29,245 nt of DNA from NCBI GenBank assembly GCA_001821395.1, contig MHLM01000007.1, positions 1 through 29,245 of the forward strand, read 5' to 3'. Shown here piece after piece: positions 3,021 through 29,245 of the stretch. Within the stretch, counting starts at the first letter, position 1, and each line of letters starts with the position of its first letter. The notes under the pieces were generated by a model that worked only from the letters and a program-made list of their open reading frames with translations, was not told the DNA's origin and ran no database searches. Made by a program: the position numbers and the translations under genes. The stretch is from Candidatus Lloydbacteria bacterium RIFCSPHIGHO2_02_FULL_50_18 (GTDB lineage: Bacteria > Patescibacteriota > Minisyncoccia > Phycocordibacterales > UBA6899).

Positions 3021-6000
3021 TTATTTTACGTCGACCTCATCGATCGTATTGCGTCTCTTCAAGTACAGTCTCGTGAGCAGGAGTGTAAGGATGACAAGCA
3101 CGATGAGGAAATAAACTGAACTATCTGAAAGATGCAGTTTGTCCGATACTGACCCGACCACAGCGGCAAGTCCGCGCTTCGTGCTTGCACCAGCGACGAT
3201 CCCTTCTTCTTTAGTGACACTCGGATCAGTCTGCGTTCCTGAAAGCTCACCTCCCACATGCGGCATTGTTGCCAACAGGTCGGACAGCGCAAGCCTCCCA
3301 CGATTAACGAGCTTCGGTTCCGGTTTTTCCTTTTCATTCACGTCTATGGCTGCGAACACCCCTTCATTGCCGTTATTGACGCTTACCCCATTAGAAGCTC
3401 CATCGTTCGTATTCATTCCCACAAGAGGTAGTACGGAGGTTGTCGTACTGCCTTCTCTGTGGATCTTGTTGATAAGATCTCGGAATGCCGCAACCTCACT
3501 CACCTGCAAAGACGTCAGTGGAAATTCTTGCTTACAATAGAGCTCATTGACCTTCTTTTGTGTTGTGTAATACACATACCCCGTATTGCCCCGTAAATTC
3601 CAGATCGAAAGCACATCGACAGCGTACCTGTCTTGGAATGCGCGCACCGCGGCATCGGTAGTCGTATCGAAGAATCCGTTGACATCGAGCGTCGTGAATC
3701 CTTCGTAATTCCTGAGAAACGTCTGAAGCTTCGTCACTTCAACCGGATTGTTGTTTGCACCAAGCCTCATGTATGCATTGAGATATGAACACTCCGTTGA
3801 TTCACCGAGCACCGCACCCTGCGTCAGCTCAATTCCGATCGCACCCTCCGTGTCGGTCGTTGAGATCGGACGGAAATATGTCGAAACACCGGAAGGTATT
3901 CCCTCGATAGTGACGCTATGTGTCGTCGAGGCAATTGTGTCGGTCGCAGTAGAGAGATCGTATCCATAGAGCGGAGATGCTCCGAGACTCAAGACGGGTA
4001 GAAGTCCGTACGTCACGCGACTGGTCGCAGCGATGTTGGTATCCCAGGTCACCGTCACGGTCGTTGTGCCGGTGCTGGCAAGATGTTCATTGAATATCGC
4101 AAGCGTGACCGATCCCCCCCCGCAGTTAACTGTACAACCACCTCCACCGGGGACAACATTAACCGTACGCGTGACGGGTGTCGCGGCATGACCCTGTGCA
4201 TCAGCAACATTATAGGAAAGTGTATATGCACCGATCACACTTGCATTAACCAAACCACTGACAACAATACTCGAGGTAATGTCTCCGTCTTCCGGATCAT
4301 GCGCTGTTGCCCCGGGGTCAGCAAAGGTCGTATCCATGGTGATGCTCATTGGATCGGCACCAAGGAGCGTGAGCGTCGGACCCGTGTCGCGCTCATCATT
4401 ATCTTGCGGTGAATCACAGCCCGGATCTCGTGGGAAGTCTGCAAATCCGTCGCCATCGTTATCGCTCCCGTCTGAGCACGCTGCAGGAGGCTCGCCGCCA
4501 CAATTTTGCGTACACACGGCGGGAGTAACGTTCACTGTGCGCGACTGTGTGTCTGCCGCAACATCCTGCGAATCAGTGGCATTGTACTCGATCACATATG
4601 CACCTGCGACCGCCGTATTTACGGTACCAAAAATGACGAGCTTCCCGTCGATCTGTCCGTCTTCCTGATCGTGTACGGTTGCATTCGGTTCTCCATAAGA
4701 TGCGCCAACAACGAGATTCATTACGATGTCACCCAACAGCGTGATCATCGGCTTTGCATTTTCGCTATCGTCTTCCGAGGAACTACAACCCGGATCGAGC
4801 GGAAAATCGGTCAACTCATCTCCGTCATTGTCCCTTCCGTCAGAGCAACTTGTAACAACTCTTACGGTACGTATTTTTGTATCAGCGGCGAGACCCTTTG
4901 CATCTGCTGCGTCATAGGTAACCGTGTAAGTACCGAGCACGTTTGTATCAACGACACCCGTCGTCACGAGCGTGATTGCTCCTTCTTCAGGATCAATAGC
5001 CGTTGCGCTCGGATCAATGAATGTCACACCAAGATGGATCTCGAATGGATTGTCACCGAGCACGGTGATGACCGGCTGCTCATTCTCATCGTTATCCTCC
5101 GAAGAGTCACATCCTGCGTCCCGAACCACCTCAATGTTTCCTGAAAAGTCGACATGACCGTCACCATCATTATCGATACCATCATTACACTCCGTAACGG
5201 GAGGGGTCACGTTCACAATGCGCGTCTTTTCAGCGGCTGCAAGCCCCTTCGAATCTGAAACATTATAGTGAAGCGTGTATGAACCAACAATAGACGTATC
5301 AACGGTGTCCGTCATTAAAATACTTGCAGCAGGGATGACACCATCCTCTTCATCAAATGCCGTTGCACCGATATCGGTAAACGTACCACCCTGCGTAATA
5401 CTAAAGGGATTTGCTCCGACCACGGTAATAACGGGAGCGTTGTTCTCATCATTATCATTCGGACCTTCGCATCCTAGATCTCCACCGGCAAAGTCGGTCT
5501 TTCCGTCATGATCATTATCCTTCCCGTCAGCACACGCTGCGACGACGCGAACGATGCGCGTCTTCGTGTCAGCTGAGATATTCAGTGAATCGGTTGCATT
5601 ATAAGTGATCGTGTAATTGTTAAGGACATTTGTATCAAGGACACCCGTCGTCACCAGCTTTGAGAGCGTAATGTCTCCGTCTTCCGGGTCAACCGCAATT
5701 GCTCCTTCATCAGCGTAGGCATCACCAAGCGTAACAATAGCGGGGTCCGCTCCGATGACGGTGATGACCGGCTGCTCATTCTCATCATTATCCTCCGGGC
5801 CCTCACAGCCAGCGTCACCTCCGACGAAATCGGTCTCGCTGTCGTTGTCGTTGTCTTTCCCGTCGCGACATTGCGGTTTATTTGATTCGGTATTCAAGAA
5901 ATTTTGCCCCGCCAATACTGCACCCGGATCAAGATTCAAAAAATAACATCCGTTATACATTGAGCTGACCGGTGACGTCTCCGTCCATCCGCTCCGAGCG

Positions 6001-7649
6001 ACTTCGCAAAGCAGGTAGTTGCCCGGAATAACATCGCTGAACACATATGAACCATCGGCGCTTGTTGTCGTATTCAACGTAAGCCCGTTTCCTGCCACTT
6101 CAGTAAGGGTGATTTCCCAACCTCCTATGCCCACTTCAGCACTATCAACAACGCCATTTGCATTTTCATCGTTAATCTTTTTTCCAGAGACATTGGCAGG
6201 ATCACGCCGACACTCTGTCGTTGCGATACTCTGATAGATAGCAGTGAGATCGGCGCCAGTCGGAGCAAAATAATAATTCGACGGCTGTGATGCGATCTGC
6301 TTCATCAGCGTCGGATTCACGTGGGCGCCCAGCCCGATGGTATAAATGACCGTTCCCAGCGATTTCGCTATCGACGATTGTGTGACCGCAGCAGCACTCG
6401 CAGCCGCAGTAGACACACCCTCTACCTCTGGGACACCGTCCGAGAGCAATATCATCACATGCTTTGTACCGATACGCCCGTTTGCCGTCATCTCTTCCGT
6501 TGCCTTGTTGATCGCTTCGCTAATGTTTGTACCACCAGCCGCGGCAACAGAAGCGAAGCTGGACTTTACCGCAAAAAGATCAGAAGAAAGTGCCGAATTG
6601 AGCGTCGTAGCCGCACTATAGGTCACTACTCCTGCCTTATCAGTTAGTGGTGAAAGACCATCAATGAAAGTTGCTGCGCCGCTCTTTGCCTGGGTCAAAG
6701 GCTGCTCGGGATCTATCCCGTCAAATTTCATGCTCCCTGAACGGTCAATGATCAGCATGACATCAATCGGAGCGAGACATGCCTGTGCGAGTGTAACAGT
6801 GACAATGCGTGTTTTTGTATCAGCGGCAATATTTTGAGAATCAGTTGCGTTGTAGGTGATAGCGTATGTACCCAGTGTGTTCACGTCGACGACGCCGGTC
6901 GCAACGACCTTGTTGTTTATTTGCCCATCTTCAGCATCAAACGCTGTTGCCCCTTGATCGATGTAGATGTTGCCAAGGATGACCTCCACAGGATTATCAC
7001 CGACAATAGTGATCACCGGTTGCTGGTTTCCTGTTGGAGGAGGAGTCGTGCACCCCTCTCCATCAAGAGCAACATGTAGCCCATAAAGCAATCCAGCGGG
7101 ATTCAACTGTGGTGAACTTCCTACTTGTGCCCAATTTTTTACAGTGAAAGAAAGGGTGTTCGCTCCAACATGCAGACCAGAAAGTACATTGTAAGTATCT
7201 TTTTCCCCATCGAAGTAATTATATTCGGTATTATCTCCACCGATCGGATTCCCATTAAGTGCAACAGTATATGAATTATCAGCAGCAATCACGAGCGAAC
7301 CATTAAGTGGGACCGAGGGTAGATCGAATGATCTTGTAAAAGTCACTGTTTCATCGACCGAAGGATCAAGCACGAGATGCGAACTCCATATCCATGTTGC
7401 CCCGGGAATTAACGCTGTCCACCTTACGTTACCATTATACGTCGGCGTAGCATTCACTCCTCCCATGATGGTTGTGTGAATATCAGAAACGATATCAACA
7501 TCACAAACAACGGGCTGATCACTCAGAACGGTCGCATACGCAACCAGAGGTGCACCACCACCTTGCAGCAGCAAAGAAAATGCCATCAGCATTGCGACTG
7601 ATCGCTGTTTTAAAATTTGTTTTTTCGATGAGGTAAATATGGTCTGCAT
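3021..7649 (-). CDS. giant secreted/cell-surface multidomain protein
   Basis: 1542-aa ORF with an N-terminal signal peptide (KKQILKQR then a hydrophobic stretch). VWA domain with an MIDAS-like DRSGSM motif (about nt 6212-6782). SdrD/CnaB-like fold (GGWEITL...DGSYVF). Six tandem repeats, each a Cys/Asp-rich motif (C.DG.DND.DG..DF..D.GC) followed by an Ig-like PVIT..G.NP...GxxYxDxGAxAxDxxDGxI domain. Peptidoglycan-binding-like segment (LQTFLRNYEGF...AVRAFQDRYA). C-terminal hydrophobic helix followed by KRRN. Confidence 0.8.
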   Translation of the reverse strand: MQTIFTSSKKQILKQRSVAMLMAFSLLLQGGGAPLVAYATVLSDQPVVCDVDIVSDIHTTIMGGVNATPTYNGNVRWTALIPGATWIWSSHLVLDPSVDETVTFTRSFDLPSVPLNGSLVIAADNSYTVALNGNPIGGDNTEYNYFDGEKDTYNVLSGLHVGANTLSFTVKNWAQVGSSPQLNPAGLLYGLHVALDGEGCTTPPPTGNQQPVITIVGDNPVEVILGNIYIDQGATAFDAEDGQINNKVVATGVVDVNTLGTYAITYNATDSQNIAADTKTRIVTVTLAQACLAPIDVMLIIDRSGSMKFDGIDPEQPLTQAKSGAATFIDGLSPLTDKAGVVTYSAATTLNSALSSDLFAVKSSFASVAAAGGTNISEAINKATEEMTANGRIGTKHVMILLSDGVPEVEGVSTAAASAAAVTQSSIAKSLGTVIYTIGLGAHVNPTLMKQIASQPSNYYFAPTGADLTAIYQSIATTECRRDPANVSGKKINDENANGVVDSAEVGIGGWEITLTEVAGNGLTLNTTTSADGSYVFSDVIPGNYLLCEVARSGWTETSPVSSMYNGCYFLNLDPGAVLAGQNFLNTESNKPQCRDGKDNDNDSETDFVGGDAGCEGPEDNDENEQPVITVIGADPAIVTLGDAYADEGAIAVDPEDGDITLSKLVTTGVLDTNVLNNYTITYNATDSLNISADTKTRIVRVVAACADGKDNDHDGKTDFAGGDLGCEGPNDNDENNAPVITVVGANPFSITQGGTFTDIGATAFDEEDGVIPAASILMTDTVDTSIVGSYTLHYNVSDSKGLAAAEKTRIVNVTPPVTECNDGIDNDGDGHVDFSGNIEVVRDAGCDSSEDNDENEQPVITVLGDNPFEIHLGVTFIDPSATAIDPEEGAITLVTTGVVDTNVLGTYTVTYDAADAKGLAADTKIRTVRVVTSCSDGRDNDGDELTDFPLDPGCSSSEDDSENAKPMITLLGDIVMNLVVGASYGEPNATVHDQEDGQIDGKLVIFGTVNTAVAGAYVIEYNATDSQDVAADTQSRTVNVTPAVCTQNCGGEPPAACSDGSDNDGDGFADFPRDPGCDSPQDNDERDTGPTLTLLGADPMSITMDTTFADPGATAHDPEDGDITSSIVVSGLVNASVIGAYTLSYNVADAQGHAATPVTRTVNVVPGGGGCTVNCGGGSVTLAIFNEHLASTGTTTVTVTWDTNIAATSRVTYGLLPVLSLGASPLYGYDLSTATDTIASTTHSVTIEGIPSGVSTYFRPISTTDTEGAIGIELTQGAVLGESTECSYLNAYMRLGANNNPVEVTKLQTFLRNYEGFTTLDVNGFFDTTTDAAVRAFQDRYAVDVLSIWNLRGNTGYVYYTTQKKVNELYCKQEFPLTSLQVSEVAAFRDLINKIHREGSTTTSVLPLVGMNTNDGASNGVSVNNGNEGVFAAIDVNEKEKPEPKLVNRGRLALSDLLATMPHVGGELSGTQTDPSVTKEEGIVAGASTKRGLAAVVGSVSDKLHLSDSSVYFLIVLVILTLLLTRLYLKRRNTIDEVDVK
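4200..5900 (-). repeat. intragenic tandem coding repeats (about 290 bp x6) inside the giant protein gene
   Basis: Repeated protein modules (MopE-like motif plus Ig-like domain). The repeats also show up as families of similar spurious plus-strand ORFs in this interval. Confidence 0.6.
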
Positions 7650-12571: not shown

Positions 12572-12614
12572 AAACAAAGTATATCAAGAAATAATTGCAC
12601 AACAAACCCTACGT

Positions 12615-12638
12615 GGTGCCCCTGGCCGGAATCGAACG
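12615..12638 (-). pseudogene. tRNA 3'-terminal fragment (T-loop plus acceptor 3' strand plus CCA)
   Basis: Reverse complement reads GTTCGATTCCGGCCAGGGGCACCA. It is similar to, but not identical with, the 3' end of the adjacent tRNA-Arg, and no matching 5' part lies within 80 nt. Confidence 0.45.
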
Positions 12639-12659
12639 CACTATTTTTCCTGCAACAAC

Positions 12660-12734
12660 TGGTGCCCCCAGCGGGAATCGAACCTACATCTACTCCTTAG
12701 GACGGAGCTGTTCTATCCATTGAACTATGGGGGC
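12660..12734 (-). tRNA. tRNA-Arg (CCT)
   Basis: 75-nt cloverleaf: GCCCCCA TA GTTC AATGGATA GAAC A GCTCC GTCCTAA GGAGT AGAT GTAGG TTCGATT CCCGC TGGGGGC A CCA. The anticodon is CCT, CCA is encoded, and the T-stem has one A-C mismatch. Confidence 0.75.
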
Positions 12735-12894
12735 ACAAGTTGTTGCAGGAAATAAAATTAATACAAGAATCAAACTGACATCTCCGCCCTACTGGCGCTG
12801 TACACCTTTTGGCTTTTTGTTTCACTTCGTTCACAAAACGACTCAAAAGGTCTTGCGGTGTGGCCCCATCGGAATGGGTTCCCAAAGCCACACC

Positions 12895-12945
12895 TCACCT
12901 TAGGACGGAGCTGTTCTATCCATTGAACTACAGAGGCGACGAGCG
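12895..12945 (-). pseudogene. tRNA 5'-half fragment (acceptor 5' strand through anticodon loop), paralogous to tRNA-Arg(CCT)
   Basis: 33 nt (D-arm to anticodon loop) are identical to tRNA-Arg(CCT). The acceptor strand is GCCTCTG rather than GCCCCCA. The sequence diverges after the anticodon loop and there is no T-arm. Confidence 0.45.
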
Positions 12946-23833: not shown

Positions 23834-24001
23834 TATGTCCTCCTTGTAGTCAAACAAACTATCCATCCACAATGCTACGCCATTCATGTTTCTTGTAAAG
23901 AAAAATGATGTCATCGTCGATGAACCACGATCCGATCGGAACGACTCTTCTGATGCGTATCTTGATGATCAAACCAAGAAAATTTGAGGGTGATTCACAT
24001 A

Positions 24002-24029
24002 TTGTATTTTTATAACTTCCGAGTAGTAT
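24002..24029 (+). promoter_or_regulatory. promoter of small membrane protein gene A (TTGTAT, 16 nt, TAGTAT)
   Basis: It is conserved in position and sequence with copy B (TTGCAT, 16 nt, TAGCAT at 26800-26827). It lies 30 nt upstream of a GGAGG Shine-Dalgarno site. Confidence 0.4.
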
Positions 24030-24059
24030 GAAAACTGGATATTTTTCATGGAGGTAAAA

Positions 24060-24236
24060 ATGAGTTTCGAAACCGCTGCGGGCCTCTGGCTCCTGATAGG
24101 ATTGATCTGTGTGATTATGATCGCAAAAACACAAGATAACTCCAATAAGGATGATCTCTTGTTTAGCATCTTCTTGATCTTTTTCGGCCCCTTAAATCTG
24201 CTCATCCTGCTACTGATCCGTAGCTGTCGCGATTGA
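24060..24236 (+). CDS. small two-helix membrane protein (paralog A; possibly PLDc_N-like)
   Basis: 58 aa: MSFETAAGLWLLIGLICVIMIAKTQ..LFSIFLIFFGPLNLLILLLIRS. It is paralogous to the ORF at 26858. A GGAGG site lies 7 nt upstream. Confidence 0.5.
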   Translation: MSFETAAGLWLLIGLICVIMIAKTQDNSNKDDLLFSIFLIFFGPLNLLILLLIRSCRD

Positions 24237-24249
24237 CTGGTGATAAAGA

Positions 24250-24285
24250 AAAGAACCAAGACAAGAACCTTGGTTCTTTATTTTT
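24250..24285. terminator. terminator (ccaag-core hairpin)
   Basis: gaaccaag(24253-24260)/cttggttc(24269-24276) followed by tttattttt. It lies between convergent genes. Confidence 0.6.
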
Positions 24286-24315
24286 ACCGTCCCAAAAGAT
24301 TACTATGAGATAATC

Positions 24316-25281
24316 CTAGCGGATACCCGTTTGCGCCTTGATCCGATCCTGAAGTATCTTGATCTGCGCGAGTAATTTCTGGATCAGGATCGCGCGTTGC
24401 TCTTGCTCAGAATAGAAAGATTTATATTCAAGCAGCACGCCGGAGGAGATTCCGCGATTGAGGGCCTCGCGCGTGGCAGGACCCACGATACCGACAGGAT
24501 CGATCATTTGCCGTTTCTGAAAAGCGATCACCGCCTCGCGGGTGAGCGGACCGAAATACCCTGTTATGTTTTCCTTTTGCAATAATCCCAGCACCTTGAG
24601 GACTATCTGTAGCTGACGGACCTCTTCTCCGCTTGAGCCCAGCTCAAGCATCGTCTTAAAAATATCATTCGGACGACCGTCAACCACCCTCTCGAGCTGT
24701 AGTCGCATATCGGGAGTGATCCCAAGCTTTGCATTGCTCGACCGATAGACGCCGGTCGACGCGATCAGACTCGGATACGGATCAATGGCCTGCCGATTGG
24801 GATCATGTATCTCGAAGTGTAAGTGCGACACGGTGTTCTCCGCATTCCCGCTATCACCGACCCACCCCAAGAGCTGCCCCCTTGTCACCGACTGCCCGCG
24901 ATCAAGACCTGATGCATAGGCATTCATCTCTCCACCTTTTCCGTCATCGGTGCCGGGGGTATCATTGTTCAAATGAAAATAAAGGTATTGGTATCCTTCA
25001 GAGTCGACAATAGATATCTCATATCCCCACGCCGCTTCGGGTGAAATGATAAAATTCACCGTTCCGTTCACTGCCGAAACAACAGGGGTCATCTTTGCGG
25101 CAATGATGTCATTACCCAGATGTTTTCTCGTTCCTCCGCCTCGCGGTGCTCCAAAATCGCTGAAAAAATTGTTCGGTCCGTTCACGGGAAACTCGATCGA
25201 GCGGACAACCTCTGCATTCACGGAGAGCGGAATAAGCAGCAGAGAGAGGGCAATATAAAATAAGTAGAGATGTTTCATCAT
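24316..25281 (-). CDS. secreted M23 family metallopeptidase with C-terminal peptidoglycan-binding domain
   Basis: Signal peptide MMKHLYLFYIALSLLLIPLSVNA. HLGNDI and GDSGNAENTVSHLHFEI (HxH) LytM/M23 motifs. A C-terminal PG_binding_1-like segment (GYFGPLTREAVIAFQ). TATAAT then 6 nt then ATG at 25281. Confidence 0.8.
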   Translation of the reverse strand: MMKHLYLFYIALSLLLIPLSVNAEVVRSIEFPVNGPNNFFSDFGAPRGGGTRKHLGNDIIAAKMTPVVSAVNGTVNFIISPEAAWGYEISIVDSEGYQYLYFHLNNDTPGTDDGKGGEMNAYASGLDRGQSVTRGQLLGWVGDSGNAENTVSHLHFEIHDPNRQAIDPYPSLIASTGVYRSSNAKLGITPDMRLQLERVVDGRPNDIFKTMLELGSSGEEVRQLQIVLKVLGLLQKENITGYFGPLTREAVIAFQKRQMIDPVGIVGPATREALNRGISSGVLLEYKSFYSEQEQRAILIQKLLAQIKILQDRIKAQTGIR

Positions 25282-25334
25282 CTTTCCATTATAACCCACG
25301 CGAGCCCCCATTTGCCGTTCACGATCCTTTTATC

Positions 25335-25361
25335 AAAAAACCGCCGATGTTAGTCGGCGGG
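25335..25361 (-). terminator. terminator of hypothetical gene 25370-26290
   Basis: A6 on the plus strand, then ccgccga/tcggcgg stem (25341-25347 and 25354-25360). This gives a U-run on the minus transcript. Confidence 0.6.
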
Positions 25362-25369
25362 ATATAGAA

Positions 25370-26290
25370 CTAAATCTGCGGCAAAGCACTGAAGAGCTTC
25401 ACCCGACGCACCTGAATTTGCGATTGGAAAGATACAGGTCCAAAAAATCGCGAAGTAACTGCCATGTGGTCAGCACCAAAAGCGTCCTTTCCAAAATTCA
25501 CCACCGGCATTTCTCCATTGAAAGTGCTGCCACACGTTGCGAACACACCAGTGAACGACGCGAGGTTTGGCTCGAACTCTCGGATGTCTCTTCTAAAGTG
25601 GTGAGCAGCGTCACGACGATACAAACAATAGGCCACCCAGAGCAGATGCTCGCGGAGAGTCATGCACGACCCTCGATAGCGCCGTTCGTCTCTTATCGAC
25701 GACGGTATCGTTTCAGAAATTTTCGTAGAGAACGACGCGATGTAATTCTCTCGGGGGCGCGCGATATTCAGTGCAGGGTCCCAGAGGTCTCCTTTCAAAT
25801 TCGTAAACTTCCCATTTTTAAAGTCGACTATATCGACGCCATGTTTTTGGATGACCTTAGCGATGTTTTCAATGCAAACCTTTGTCGCTACGCGAATCGG
25901 GGTGACATATGTGTACACCTTTGCATCAGGGAGTCGAACTCGAGAAAAATCAGGATCAACCTGAAATTCATCCGCATAAAATTCACTCCATGGATCAAGA
26001 AATTCGCGATCACGATAACATGCGAGGAACGTGGAGGCACAATGGTAGTCAATTTCGTTTAGGCCATAAGTGCTCAATCGTGCCCGCAACTCTTCGGGGT
26101 GATCGATCAGATGCTGCATCTCCGCCTTTGAAAGTTCTGGTAACACTTGAAGCAATTTGGCATCAAATTCGCGCACCTGTTCCGGACGAGCCGATTGAGA
26201 AACTTCCTTCGATACTTCTGTCGGTTGAGCTGATTGTGAATCTTTCTCTGATACTTCTGGCACTTCTTGCCGTTGAGCTGACTCAGTCAT
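25370..26290 (-). CDS. hypothetical protein with acidic low-complexity N-terminus
   Basis: The start was set at MTESAQ (ATG 26290, AAAGGAG 8 nt upstream). The N-terminal 60 aa are encoded by about 2.5 copies of an imperfect 39-bp tandem repeat (26191-26288). The C-terminal 240 aa show no recognisable family. Confidence 0.5.
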   Translation of the reverse strand: MTESAQRQEVPEVSEKDSQSAQPTEVSKEVSQSARPEQVREFDAKLLQVLPELSKAEMQHLIDHPEELRARLSTYGLNEIDYHCASTFLACYRDREFLDPWSEFYADEFQVDPDFSRVRLPDAKVYTYVTPIRVATKVCIENIAKVIQKHGVDIVDFKNGKFTNLKGDLWDPALNIARPRENYIASFSTKISETIPSSIRDERRYRGSCMTLREHLLWVAYCLYRRDAAHHFRRDIREFEPNLASFTGVFATCGSTFNGEMPVVNFGKDAFGADHMAVTSRFFGPVSFQSQIQVRRVKLFSALPQI

Positions 26291-26562
26291 GAGCTGGACT
26301 CCTTTGGTTGGTTGATGAAAAAGAACCGTGATGAGCGTTGACCCATCACCCACCATATTCAGCTTTTTCAACAATTTGTCAATTCGACGCACGGCACACT
26401 GAAAACCCAGGTGGTACTCATAATATTATCCGACGGCTACCTTTGAAGTTACGTGAAACTGACGAAGGGACGGTTGTCTCGCATTGCACAAAGACGAACT
26501 TTGCATGGAAACCTGCGGTCGAGAAAACAATTGTGCCCTATGAGTATGTGGAGATAAAAACG

Positions 26563-26602
26563 AATTACCTTATAATACGCCATGGCGTATTATAAGGTAA
26601 TT
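26563..26602. repeat. 40-bp perfect palindrome (20-bp arms, no spacer)
   Basis: aattaccttataatacgcca|tggcgtattataaggtaatt. Each arm contains a TATAAT box. It lies in a 465-bp intergenic region. Confidence 0.6.
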
Positions 26603-26799
26603 ATTATCGGAGAGGTTGGGGAAAGAAAACAGGAAGAAAAAATATGTTATTCATCCTTTTTTTCACCTTGAGAGTTGAATTGCGTATTTCATCTGCCTTC
26701 CATTTACATTTGCCCTACTGAGCTAAATGATTGAAGTAAGCCACCCAAACAGGCGGCTTTTTTATGATCAAACGACAGAACACGAACGTGATTCGCATA

Positions 26800-26827
26800 T
26801 TGCATTCTTGGTTCTTCCGAGTAGCAT
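26800..26827 (+). promoter_or_regulatory. promoter of small membrane protein gene B (TTGCAT, 16 nt, TAGCAT)
   Basis: Paralogous to the promoter at 24002-24029. Confidence 0.4.
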
Positions 26828-26857
26828 GAAGCTCGGGTCTGTTTCTGGGGAGCAAAA

Positions 26858-27046
26858 ATGAGTATCGGTAGCATCACTGGTATCTGGCTGTTAATCGGTT
26901 TGATATGCTCGTTCGTGATCGCAAGGGCGCATGGCCCTGCTTTGCGTATCATGAGAGAGGAACCTGGGACTACTGCTGTTTTGGTTCTTCTCGGTCCGAT
27001 CAGCCTGCTCGTTCTTTTGCTGATGTGTTTCATGAGCGATGGATAG
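26858..27046 (+). CDS. small two-helix membrane protein (paralog B)
   Basis: 62 aa: MSIGSITGIWLLIGLICSFVIARAH..AVLVLLGPISLLVLLLMCF. The upstream 70 nt are about 75% identical to the copy A leader. A GGGGAG Shine-Dalgarno site is present. Confidence 0.5.
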   Translation: MSIGSITGIWLLIGLICSFVIARAHGPALRIMREEPGTTAVLVLLGPISLLVLLLMCFMSDG

Positions 27047-27056
27047 ACATGGTAAT

Positions 27057-27086
27057 ACAACCAAGGCAAATGCCTTGGTTTTTTCA
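27057..27086. terminator. bidirectional terminator (ccaagg-core hairpin)
   Basis: aaccaaggca aa tgccttggtt (27059-27080) followed by tttt. It overlaps the stop codon of the convergent minus-strand ORF. Confidence 0.6.
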
Positions 27087-27290
27087 CAACGGGAGATCTT
27101 CTGTTCGATTCCTGTCGTCCAACTCCCTACTTTTCTCCTTTTTTGCCTTGAGGGATCTGAGTCTGCTCTCCGCAAGCGAGGTCCAGCTGAGCACCCCGAT
27201 AGCAGAACGCACCGCCTCCGTCTCCTCCTCATTCAGAACCCCCTTCTCAATAAGCCCCAAGAGTACCTCGATCGCCTTTTTATCGTCCAT
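27084..27290 (-). CDS. hypothetical small protein
   Basis: 68 to 74 aa (MDDKKAIEVLLGLIEKG...), charged C-terminus. The start is uncertain: 27290 is preceded by TACATT and 6 nt, and 27308 by GAGGG. Confidence 0.35.
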   Translation of the reverse strand: MDDKKAIEVLLGLIEKGVLNEEETEAVRSAIGVLSWTSLAESRLRSLKAKKEKSRELDDRNRTEDLPL

Positions 27291-27425
27291 GAGATAAATG
27301 TAGCACATCGATCACGTTGATCCCTCATTTTTCGAGAGGTTCGGAGGGACTTGTGTATTTTCAAATTACATACTATAACGCAATTAGCTCAGTCGTCCTT
27401 CAACCTCCAACACATAAGGAGATCT

Positions 27426-27981: not shown

Positions 27982-28287
27982 TCACTGCGTATCTCCGTCA
28001 GTCTTTTTTGGAATACCCCACTGCCAGCGAGGACGTTCACCTTTACGATAGCAAATGAGGAGGAGGACAGTAAGCAACACGAAAGGCAACATAAAGTTAA
28101 AGAAAGTTTCGCGCGTTGATGAATTCTCGTCAAGCGTGAGTGAAAGCCGGAGAAGCGCTGCAACGTACAGCACAATAGCCAACCAGCCCTGCCACGTCAC
28201 GGGAGTCCAACCCCATCCAAACAACTTTCTTTTGAACCAATATCCATGTGGATTATCTTTCAAATATTCAATGTATCGTTTCAGCAT
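27982..28287 (-). CDS. hypothetical membrane protein
   Basis: 101 aa. A Trp-rich N-terminus (YWFKRKLFGWGWTPVTWQGW) followed by two TM helices. An extended -10 TGATAGAAT then 6 nt then ATG. Confidence 0.45.
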   Translation of the reverse strand: MLKRYIEYLKDNPHGYWFKRKLFGWGWTPVTWQGWLAIVLYVAALLRLSLTLDENSSTRETFFNFMLPFVLLTVLLLICYRKGERPRWQWGIPKKTDGDTQ

Positions 28288-28394: not shown

Positions 28395-28421
28395 CTTATC
28401 CAAGGTGGAACCTTGGATAAG
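28395..28421. repeat. hairpin cttatccaagg-tggaa-ccttggataag (upstream member of inverted hairpin pair)
   Basis: 11-bp perfect stem. A 21-nt core, atccaaggtggaaccttggat, is the exact reverse complement of the core at 29060-29080. Confidence 0.55.
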
Positions 28422-28993: not shown

Positions 28994-29057
28994 AACCCAC
29001 AAAAATGGGGATTCTCGTTTCCGAATGGTGCTTATCCCCGTTTTCTCAGCGCGACCA

Positions 29058-29086
29058 AATAATCCAAGGTTCCACCTTGGATTATT
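29058..29086. terminator. hairpin aataatccaagg-ttcca-ccttggattatt (terminator; downstream member of hairpin pair)
   Basis: 12-bp perfect stem followed by ttag. It lies 65 nt after the stop of the 28550-28993 gene. Confidence 0.55.
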
Positions 29087-29245
29087 TTAGTAATGAGACC
29101 TTATCCATATTTCTCACAAGACCACACATTCAGATAAAATGGAGGGGTCACGATTCATTCTAGCTTGAACTGCAACACCTCCCGAACACCACGCACGGAG
29201 TAGACCAATGGAGGATTCTGCGCGGTCGATGGTTCAATCTCCACA

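Follow-up and report, generated by a model that had tools for sequence, protein, structure and literature searches.

The duplicated unit

We analyzed a 29,245-nucleotide (nt) stretch of DNA from Candidatus Lloydbacteria bacterium RIFCSPHIGHO2_02_FULL_50_18 (contig MHLM01000007.1 of assembly GCA_001821395.1), which we call the window. Two similar units of about 340 nt lie on its + strand, 2.8 kb apart, and each encodes a single small membrane protein. They can be aligned from about -100, relative to the start codon, to the terminator (unit A, 23962-24287; unit B, 26761-27086). Both have a conserved 5' region, which we defined by alignments, motif searches, and the fold of the leader (23962..24059 in copy A and 26761..26857 in copy B), and a Shine-Dalgarno sequence 5 nt before the ATG (GGAGG at 24050-24054 in copy A and GGGGAG at 26847-26852 in copy B). 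These are followed by a short coding sequence and a terminator. Copy A (24060..24236) encodes a two-helix membrane protein of 58 amino acids (P0002) and was called by the gene callers on the ENA and Logan assemblies. Copy B (26858..27046) encodes a two-helix membrane protein of 62 amino acids (P0001) and is a hypothetical protein in the NCBI metagenome-assembled genome (MAG); the NCBI annotation includes copy B alone, and copy A is not annotated. The genes for an M23 peptidase and for a 306-amino-acid protein lie between the two copies. No third copy of the cassette is present within the window.

The initial annotation of this DNA, which was made from its letters alone, had described a duplicated cassette with each copy opposite a convergent gene, and all of the described elements are present at the coordinates given here. 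The convergent genes are the M23 peptidase (for copy A) and a 74-amino-acid charged protein (for copy B). Sequence comparison confirmed that the pair is a true duplicated, self-contained unit, with a promoter-like region, a Shine-Dalgarno sequence, a two-helix membrane protein, and an intrinsic terminator. On other contigs that encode identical proteins (L001-L013), the cassettes have 0 differences from the window. These contigs come from the same population (>99% identity).

Coding evidence and the predicted proteins

The two proteins are 38% identical (E=5e-12, BLASTP). As had been noticed by eye, they share eight consecutive residues (WLLIGLIC) in helix 1 and the pattern GP..LL.LLL in helix 2. 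The proportion of synonymous sites that differ between the copies (pS) is 0.75, which is saturated, while the proportion of nonsynonymous sites that differ (pN) is 0.35 (Nei-Gojobori counts), so these are real coding genes. Within helix 1 alone, pS is 0.81 and pN is 0.22, and the codons for WLLIGLIC have six synonymous differences and zero replacement differences. Identity at the first, second, and third codon positions is 57%, 69%, and 41%. The sole indel in the coding sequences is of 9 nt and lies in the loop between the helices.

Could these instead be spurious open reading frames (ORFs) within a non-coding repeat, such as a miniature inverted-repeat transposable element (MITE), a gene for a small RNA (sRNA), or a regulatory repeat? 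We found no intact homolog anywhere that we searched, NCBI annotated just one of the two copies, and the coding sequences are nearly unalignable as nucleotides (E=0.59). But the proteins align with high significance despite the saturation of the DNA, conservation by codon position runs 2>1>3, the indel preserves the frame, and the differences across WLLIGLIC are synonymous only. Furthermore, both copies have a canonical Shine-Dalgarno sequence with canonical spacing, and we found no terminal inverted repeats. The codon-substitution pattern already contradicts the idea of spurious ORFs, and we give it almost no credence. There are also long antisense ORFs across both copies (23969-24259 and 26704-27087), but these are the expected shadow frames, which share third codon positions with the genes, and we do not consider them to be genes. 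A frame of this kind stays open whenever Tyr, His, and Gln are scarce in the sense protein.

Hydropathy analysis identifies two hydrophobic segments in each peptide. AlphaFold2 predicts helices at residues 3-25 and 30-57 (pLDDT 75), which would form a two-helix hairpin with the Gly-Pro inside helix 2. The most constrained surface is made up of helix 1 (G-x-WLLIGLIC, with G8, G14, and C17) and the Gly-Pro kink of helix 2. Few tryptic peptides are expected from these proteins; peptides from the loop and the termini include TQDNSNK and IMREEPGTTAVLVLLGPISLLVLLLMCFMSDG.

The upstream region

The 70 nt before the start codons (23990-24059 and 26788-26857) align without gaps and are identical at 50 of 70 positions. 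The initial annotation had put this identity at about 75%; the alignment holds, and the corrected value is 71% over exactly 70 nt. The next-best 70-mer in the window, on either strand, matches at 33 of 70 positions. Similarly, BLASTN aligns the 100 nt upstream of copy A to copy B at 76% identity over 72 nt (E=7.8e-9), and the homology extends to about -100 (ATGATCAAAC). A motif search found two blocks, GTGATTCRCATATTGYATTYTT and CTTCCGAGTAGYATGAA, that occur nowhere in the window except at the two copies (block 1 at 23990-24011 and 26788-26809; block 2 at 24016-24032 and 26814-26830), and 0 of 100 shuffles gave two matches. Third codon positions in the coding sequences are just 41% identical between A and B. 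Because the upstream 70 nt are 71% identical while synonymous sites are saturated, this non-coding DNA has been under selection.

The block contains a plausible promoter. Reading the + strand by eye, there is a -35-like TTGTAT (24002-24007) and a -10-like TAGTAT (24024-24029) in copy A, and TTGCAT (26800-26805) and TAGCAT (26822-26827) in copy B. These are the matching boxes with identical 16-nt spacing that the initial annotation had pointed out. Between the proposed hexamers, the two copies have exactly the same spacer (CTTCCGAG), and a GTGATTC block lies upstream of the -35 box. The arrangement TTGYAT-16-TAGYAT resembles two other candidate promoters that we read by eye in the window, those of TsaD (TTGCGA-17-TAGTAT) and of the RNase P RNA (TTGCAA-16-CATAAT). 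A 30-nt leader had also been proposed, but that figure is how far the ATG lies from the -10 box; the leader from a likely start site would be about 22-25 nt. With or without the block, the leaders fold no more stably than shuffled sequences (z = +1.0 for the leader of copy A, and -0.07, +0.4, and -0.8), and a search of Rfam with this region gave no relevant match (E<=10). Because the folds are not stable and the hexamers resemble those of other candidate promoters, we read the block as a promoter with a possible operator rather than as an RNA element, and we favor this over a structured 5' untranslated region (UTR). The spacer CTTCCGAG and GTGATTC may be contacts for a shared regulator.

Alternatively, transcription might begin upstream of 23990 and 26788, and the block might act as a riboregulator in the 5' UTR. 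CUUCC and AUUYUU would pair with the Shine-Dalgarno sequence and the start codon (GGAGG-YAAAAAUG), and an alternative hairpin (UCCGAG...CUCGGG) would serve as the switch. RNAalifold does draw a CUUCC:GGAGG stem that reaches the AUG; in this stem, both partners differ in three pairs and one partner differs in two others. Also, a terminator-like hairpin with a U-rich tail was flagged in copy B (26816-26837), and a plain promoter has no need of a perfectly conserved spacer. On the other hand, the folding term from RNAalifold is only -8.1 kcal/mol over 120 nt, single-sequence folds do not exceed shuffles (z = +0.4 and -0.8), and the alternative hairpin has only 4 base pairs in copy A. There is no conserved promoter-like hexamer pair upstream of the block, while the block itself contains one, and nothing in Rfam matches. 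The sign of a structured cis-regulatory RNA is one weak stem, from a comparison of two sequences that has almost no statistical power. We consider a riboregulator to be unlikely.

We also scanned other DNA for the upstream block. There were 0 matches in JGI metagenomes. The 2 matches in genome contigs lie inside unrelated coding regions (in a Bacteroidota MAG and a Verrucomicrobiota MAG), and we judged these to be due to chance. Similarly, an upstream ORF that encodes DSHI(V/A)FL in both copies starts and stops at different places in the two, and we treated it as a chance occurrence. The 45-nt block that spans the promoter is a usable handle for hunting for a regulator.

Terminators

Both genes end at hairpins, as the initial annotation had said; T runs come after them, and these are rho-independent terminators by their structure. 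In copy A, the terminator (24250..24287) has its hairpin at 24250-24279 and a T-rich tail; it was flagged on both strands, and its folding z-score is -4.65. In copy B, the + strand terminator (27059..27086) has its hairpin at 27059-27080 (AACCAAGGC-AAAT-GCCTTGGTT; z = -3.62) and a T run to 27086; this tail and the stop codon of the convergent 74-amino-acid gene overlap. For both hairpins, 0 of 200 shuffles fold as well. The hairpins have arms in common (AACCAAG...CCTTGGTT), and terminator B is 81% identical to terminator A over 26 nt. Because an A-rich stretch and a T-rich tail flank the hairpin of copy A, this terminator looks bidirectional, and it is probably used by both copy A and the convergent M23 gene.

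Searches for homologs and comparison with known systems

We found no intact homolog of either protein beyond the identical proteins mentioned above. A word-indexed search of 5.8 billion clustered proteins with a two-sequence profile (E<=10) found only the two peptides themselves, and an exhaustive HMMER search over 1.84 billion representative proteins found no intact homolog. Scans of genome, metagenome, and viral contigs with back-translated patterns found nothing further, nor did a sequence search of the PDB or tblastn against phage and plasmid genomes. With both peptides, searches of Pfam, NCBIfam, PHROGs, and PADLOC gave nothing at or near a cut-off: the best matches from hmmscan against Pfam-A (E<=1) are unrelated and below cut-off, and the best PHROG match (E=0.013) is not significant. 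When we compared the AlphaFold2 hairpin to the PDB with Foldseek, we obtained only generic helical hairpins (E>6). Two other membrane proteins look similar by eye but were rejected as relatives because of low hhalign probabilities: a 101-amino-acid protein with two transmembrane segments in the window (27982-28287; 1.5%) and a 145-amino-acid protein from a related contig, L024, that is described below (0.6%). As judged from these searches, the gene pair is specific to one narrow clade of Candidatus Lloydbacteria.

The initial annotation had suggested a faint resemblance to PLDc_N (PF13396). PLDc_N also has two transmembrane helices in about 60 amino acids, but, as the initial annotation also noted, its Gly-Pro is in the loop rather than inside helix 2. 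PF13396 is not among the hmmscan results for either peptide even at E<=1, so we do not retain this suggestion.

The initial annotation had also raised the possibility that these proteins are toxins. They might be membrane-active toxins that are akin to those of type I toxin-antitoxin systems or to TsaT, and they would be held in check by an antisense RNA, by convergent read-through, or by a neighboring antitoxin. The duplication and the frequent decay (see below) would then reflect selfish or addictive behavior. Type I loci such as zor-orz, ibs-sib, and ldr-rdl have short hydrophobic ORFs, diverged duplicates, 5' non-coding sequence that is better kept than the coding sequence, a patchy distribution, and frequent decay. 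The Lloydbacteria peptides are likewise small (58 and 62 amino acids), hydrophobic, duplicated, restricted to one lineage, and decayed in sister lineages, and their 5' regions are kept better than their coding sequences. Also, cassette B lies between the 74-amino-acid gene and the apparent ancestral terminator of that gene (26563-26602), so antisense read-through of copy B is conceivable.

Several details argue against this reading. Type I toxin mRNAs have structured 5' UTRs that sequester the ribosome-binding site, and most type I toxins have one transmembrane helix. In contrast, the Lloydbacteria proteins have two, and their strong, optimally spaced Shine-Dalgarno sequences are exposed in short leaders that, by the z-scores above, are unstructured. 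We found no antisense promoter or sRNA; specifically, a promoter scan found no promoter-like site on the minus strand within either cassette, and no sRNA family in Rfam matched. At copy A, antisense read-through would be blocked by the terminator, which looks efficient in both directions. The units are monocistronic, their neighbors are convergent, and there is no adjacent co-transcribed antitoxin ORF. PADLOC gave 0 matches.

The sole match to a toxin family is also weak. TsaT (NF047370) is a small membrane protein that serves as the toxin in a type II toxin-antitoxin system. The alignment pairs residues 9-52 of copy A with positions 14-58 of the 60 positions in the toxin_TsaT profile and spans both hydrophobic segments, but the score is 18.1 bits (E=0.0027) against a cut-off of 80 bits. 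Copy B has no match, no antitoxin gene adjoins either copy, and the similarity is probably due to composition. We searched the literature on TsaT and on small membrane proteins of the Candidate Phyla Radiation (CPR) and found nothing usable. Overall, we think it unlikely that these are membrane-active toxins akin to type I toxins or TsaT.

A better analogy may be the small membrane modulators of larger membrane complexes, such as AcrZ, KdpF, CydX, and MgtS. Like the Lloydbacteria proteins, these have under 70 amino acids, are nearly all transmembrane, and come from short genes of their own that have a normal Shine-Dalgarno sequence. They also have conservation on one helix face, have no enzymatic motifs, and are dispensable. 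The analogy is imperfect: the known modulators mostly have a single helix and are encoded within or beside the operon of their partner, whereas the Lloydbacteria units encode two helices and are monocistronic, with no identifiable partner. Nor is there any sequence relationship between the two groups.

Decayed remnants in sister lineages

We chose contigs from relatives on the basis of synteny, as indicated by close homologs of the neighboring M23 peptidase. In L024, whose M23 protein is 89% identical, the gene order is the 74-amino-acid gene, the M23 gene, an opposite-strand ORF that encodes a 145-amino-acid protein with multiple transmembrane segments and is followed by a terminator, and then a GDH-like gene. 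On the minus strand of L024, the 3' end of the multi-transmembrane ORF, together with its terminator, is 83% identical to the flank upstream of copy B in the window. L024 also contains a dead cassette, which is a chimera of the two types. Its 5' block is B-type: A and B differ at 16 sites there, and at 12 of these the L024 sequence has the base found in B. A gap of about 140-160 nt has removed the Shine-Dalgarno sequence, the ATG, and helix 1. What is left of the 3' coding sequence, along with the terminator beside M23, is A-type (71-85% identity to A and 50-54% to B). The junction lies in imperfect microhomology between the promoter region of B and the coding sequence of A.

The stub in L024 still reads LVPVIPLNLLVLLLIQSYRD, followed by a stop codon. 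In comparison to copy A, it has pS of 0.54 and pN of 0.16, which implies that it was probably part of a working gene until fairly recently. Upstream of this pseudogene, 13 of the 49 positions that are identical in A and B have changed, and both hexamers are altered (-35 to CGGCAT and -10 to TAGCTT). The upstream block appears to lose constraint once the coding sequence is lost. This is what we would expect of a cis-regulatory element of this gene, and it is a poorer fit to an independent sRNA or to a site that serves the neighbors.

In L022 (GW2011_GWA2_47_7; M23 88% identical), a decayed helix-2 stub and the common terminator sit beside M23, and nothing more of the cassette is left. The remainder of the slot is taken up by an unrelated opposite-strand ORF of 88 amino acids. 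The 74-amino-acid gene is followed by a conserved hairpin and then by M23, with neither copy B nor the gene for the 306-amino-acid protein. So terminator A has been kept beside M23 in both L022 and L024. We found no trace of the cassette in more distant relatives (M23 66-79% identical).

The slot between M23 and the GDH-like gene (window 23915-24059, L022 5454-6304, and L024 1626-2461) has different content in these three close relatives: cassette A in the window, the 88-amino-acid ORF in L022, and the 145-amino-acid membrane ORF with the dead cassette in L024. In L026 and L027, the GDH-like gene itself is absent. Judging from these contigs, the locus is a hotspot for rearrangement and gene turnover.

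The comparison suggests an ancestor with a tandem arrangement of the membrane protein gene, copy B, and copy A, facing M23 (memb -> B -> A -> <- M23). As decayed remnants are present in two sister lineages, the pair is older than those lineages and dispensable. The initial annotation had proposed that a lack of conservation outside of this genome, combined with a lack of expression evidence, would tell against these genes. Taken literally, intact genes do lack such conservation, but these genes are real and old, as is evident from their pattern of codon substitution and from the orthologous remnants that have decayed in the sister lineages.

The M23 peptidase (24316..25281 on the - strand), which was our synteny anchor, has a PG_binding_1 domain according to Pfam, and copy A or its remnants in L022 and L024 are always tail-to-tail with it, with a terminator in common. 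This might indicate that the small proteins are partners of this hydrolase: holin- or pinholin-like exporters, membrane anchors or inhibitors, or immunity factors. Phage endolysins are among the PHROGs that match the M23 protein, and the size and two-helix layout of the small proteins are in the range of class II holins. However, the genes are convergent rather than co-transcribed, and the N-terminus of the M23 protein reads as a (Sec) signal peptide (MKHLYLFYIALSLLLIPLSVNA), which would make a holin unnecessary. M23 orthologs (66-89% identity) persist without an intact cassette, and copy B adjoins no hydrolase. Nor is there any sign of a phage-type holin, such as a lysis cassette, a co-transcribed endolysin, or a phage context: the surroundings are housekeeping genes, and the small proteins have no significant match to PHROGs, phage genomes, or viral contigs. 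The holin-like role that the initial annotation had mentioned thus finds no backing here, and we think that any partnership with M23 is very unlikely.

Interpretation

We think it somewhat probable that these are ancient paralogous units, each transcribed independently and each containing a single gene for a helical-hairpin membrane protein, and that the proteins are co-regulated small membrane modulators with an accessory function. In each unit, a sigma-70-type promoter (TTGYAT, 16 nt, TAGYAT) would precede a short leader that lacks structure and has a strong Shine-Dalgarno sequence, and the coding sequence would be followed by a rho-independent terminator. Conservation around and between the hexamers far exceeds that at synonymous sites. 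We infer that both copies have the same operator for a single trans-acting regulator, which would make the paralogs co-regulated. The protein would insert into the membrane as a two-helix hairpin. The constrained helix 1 and the Gly-Pro kink would make a specific helix-helix contact, either in self-association or with a larger membrane protein. The proteins would be small membrane modulators, as opposed to enzymes, toxins, or holins. Two sister lineages have lost these accessory genes by deletion or replacement in a locus that often rearranges.

Several observations weigh against this explanation. First, the role as a modulator is an argument by exclusion, with no homolog or partner to point to. 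Second, the proposed hexamers match the E. coli consensus at only 3 of 6 and 4 of 6 positions, and a consensus scan did not flag either one. Third, we found no dyad, inverted repeat, or other repeat within the upstream blocks that would define an operator. Fourth, the anti-Shine-Dalgarno stem that RNAalifold draws (CUUCC:GGAGG) has three double changes, and a role in the 5' UTR would be possible if transcription started further upstream. Finally, loss in two sister lineages could mean that the genes are only weakly useful here.

A more dramatic possibility is that the pair is a CPR-specific membrane-active effector or toxin module. It would either be self-addictive or act on the host cell, as the bacterium is presumably an episymbiont. 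The upstream block would then be the operator of a dedicated switch, and copy B would also be silenced by antisense read-through from the 74-amino-acid gene. Copy B would have inserted in the 3' end of that gene, and the repeated, independent destruction of the cassette would reflect the cost of carrying it. We find this improbable.

Returning to the idea of small membrane modulators, the pair is real but fairly ordinary: these are lineage-specific orphan paralogs and one more case of small bacterial membrane proteins. On present evidence, no long-standing question turns on this locus. The peptides, if expressed, are one more orphan family in the little-charted small membrane proteome of CPR bacteria. 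The locus is also a natural experiment, as the paralogs keep their protein and cis-regulatory sequences long past synonymous saturation, and the sister lineages show two states of decay. As such, it is a small case study of gene turnover in reduced genomes.

Neighboring genes and other features of the window

The surrounding genes are housekeeping genes, including those for the RNase P RNA, MurJ, LepA, and a class I tRNA synthetase, and the base composition of the window gives no indication of an island. The gene for the 306-amino-acid protein between the copies (25370..26290, - strand) is not at this position in L022 or L024, and its homologs are in unrelated contexts, without the cassette. 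Directly upstream of copy B, on the + strand, is the remnant of the multi-transmembrane gene (26679..26765), which consists of 15 codons of its 3' end (26679-26726) and its terminator (26740-26765, AAGCCACCCAAACAGGCGGCTTTTTT). Reading the frame from the sequence, the remnant is in frame and ends in YFICLPFTFALLS and a stop codon. The gene is intact in L024, as the 145-amino-acid ORF at 1869-2306 on the - strand, and it does not belong to any Pfam family. The gene for the 74-amino-acid charged protein that converges on copy B (27084..27308, - strand) is kept in L022 and L024, where there is no intact cassette.

At 26563-26602, the window contains a perfect palindrome of 40 nt (AATTACCTTATAATACGCCATGGCGTATTATAAGGTAATT), which on the - strand is followed by CGTTTTTATC. 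In L022 (4071-4171), the palindrome has four mirrored double substitutions, so that its symmetry remains perfect (AATTATCCCATGATACGCCATGGCGTATCATGGGATAATT). There, it sits 4 nt past the homolog of the 74-amino-acid gene, and hence it is probably the ancestral terminator of that gene. In the window, cassette B and its flanks (26653-27131) lie between the 74-amino-acid gene and the palindrome, and the last codons of the gene have been replaced.

Two other features of the window involve repeated sequence. First, tRNA-Arg(CCT) (12660-12734, within 12612-12937 on the - strand) is flanked by copies of its own halves. The outer copy of the 5' half is 93% identical (12898-12937), the outer copy of the 3' end is 88% identical (12614-12637), and by eye these have complementary acceptor arms (GCCTCTG and CAGGGGC). 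The outer halves could be a second tRNA gene that was split by an insertion of about 260 nt that carried a replacement copy, or they could be an integration scar. Second, toward the end of the window there is a short sequence (about 30-100 nt; 29024-29149 and 28398-28418) that recurs at least 4 times within 6 kb of L022, in both orientations (5-254, 1065-1165, 1932-2623, and 5632-5678). In these genomes, it may be a MITE-like element or another small dispersed repeat.

Four genes in the window, those for TsaD, the class I tRNA synthetase, M23, and the 101-amino-acid membrane protein (upstream of 1794, 7986, 25281, and 28287, respectively), have a -10-like box (TAGTAT, TATAAT, or TAGAAT) just 6-8 nt before the ATG. 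Unlike the cassette genes, they have no Shine-Dalgarno sequence. This suggests that their mRNAs are leaderless. Finally, the - strand at 3021-7649 encodes a surface protein of 1542 amino acids with VWA, SdrD_B-like, and PG_binding_1 segments and six Bact_surface_Ig-like repeats. This gene accounts for the periodic DNA repeats of 324-372 nt at 4183-6967.

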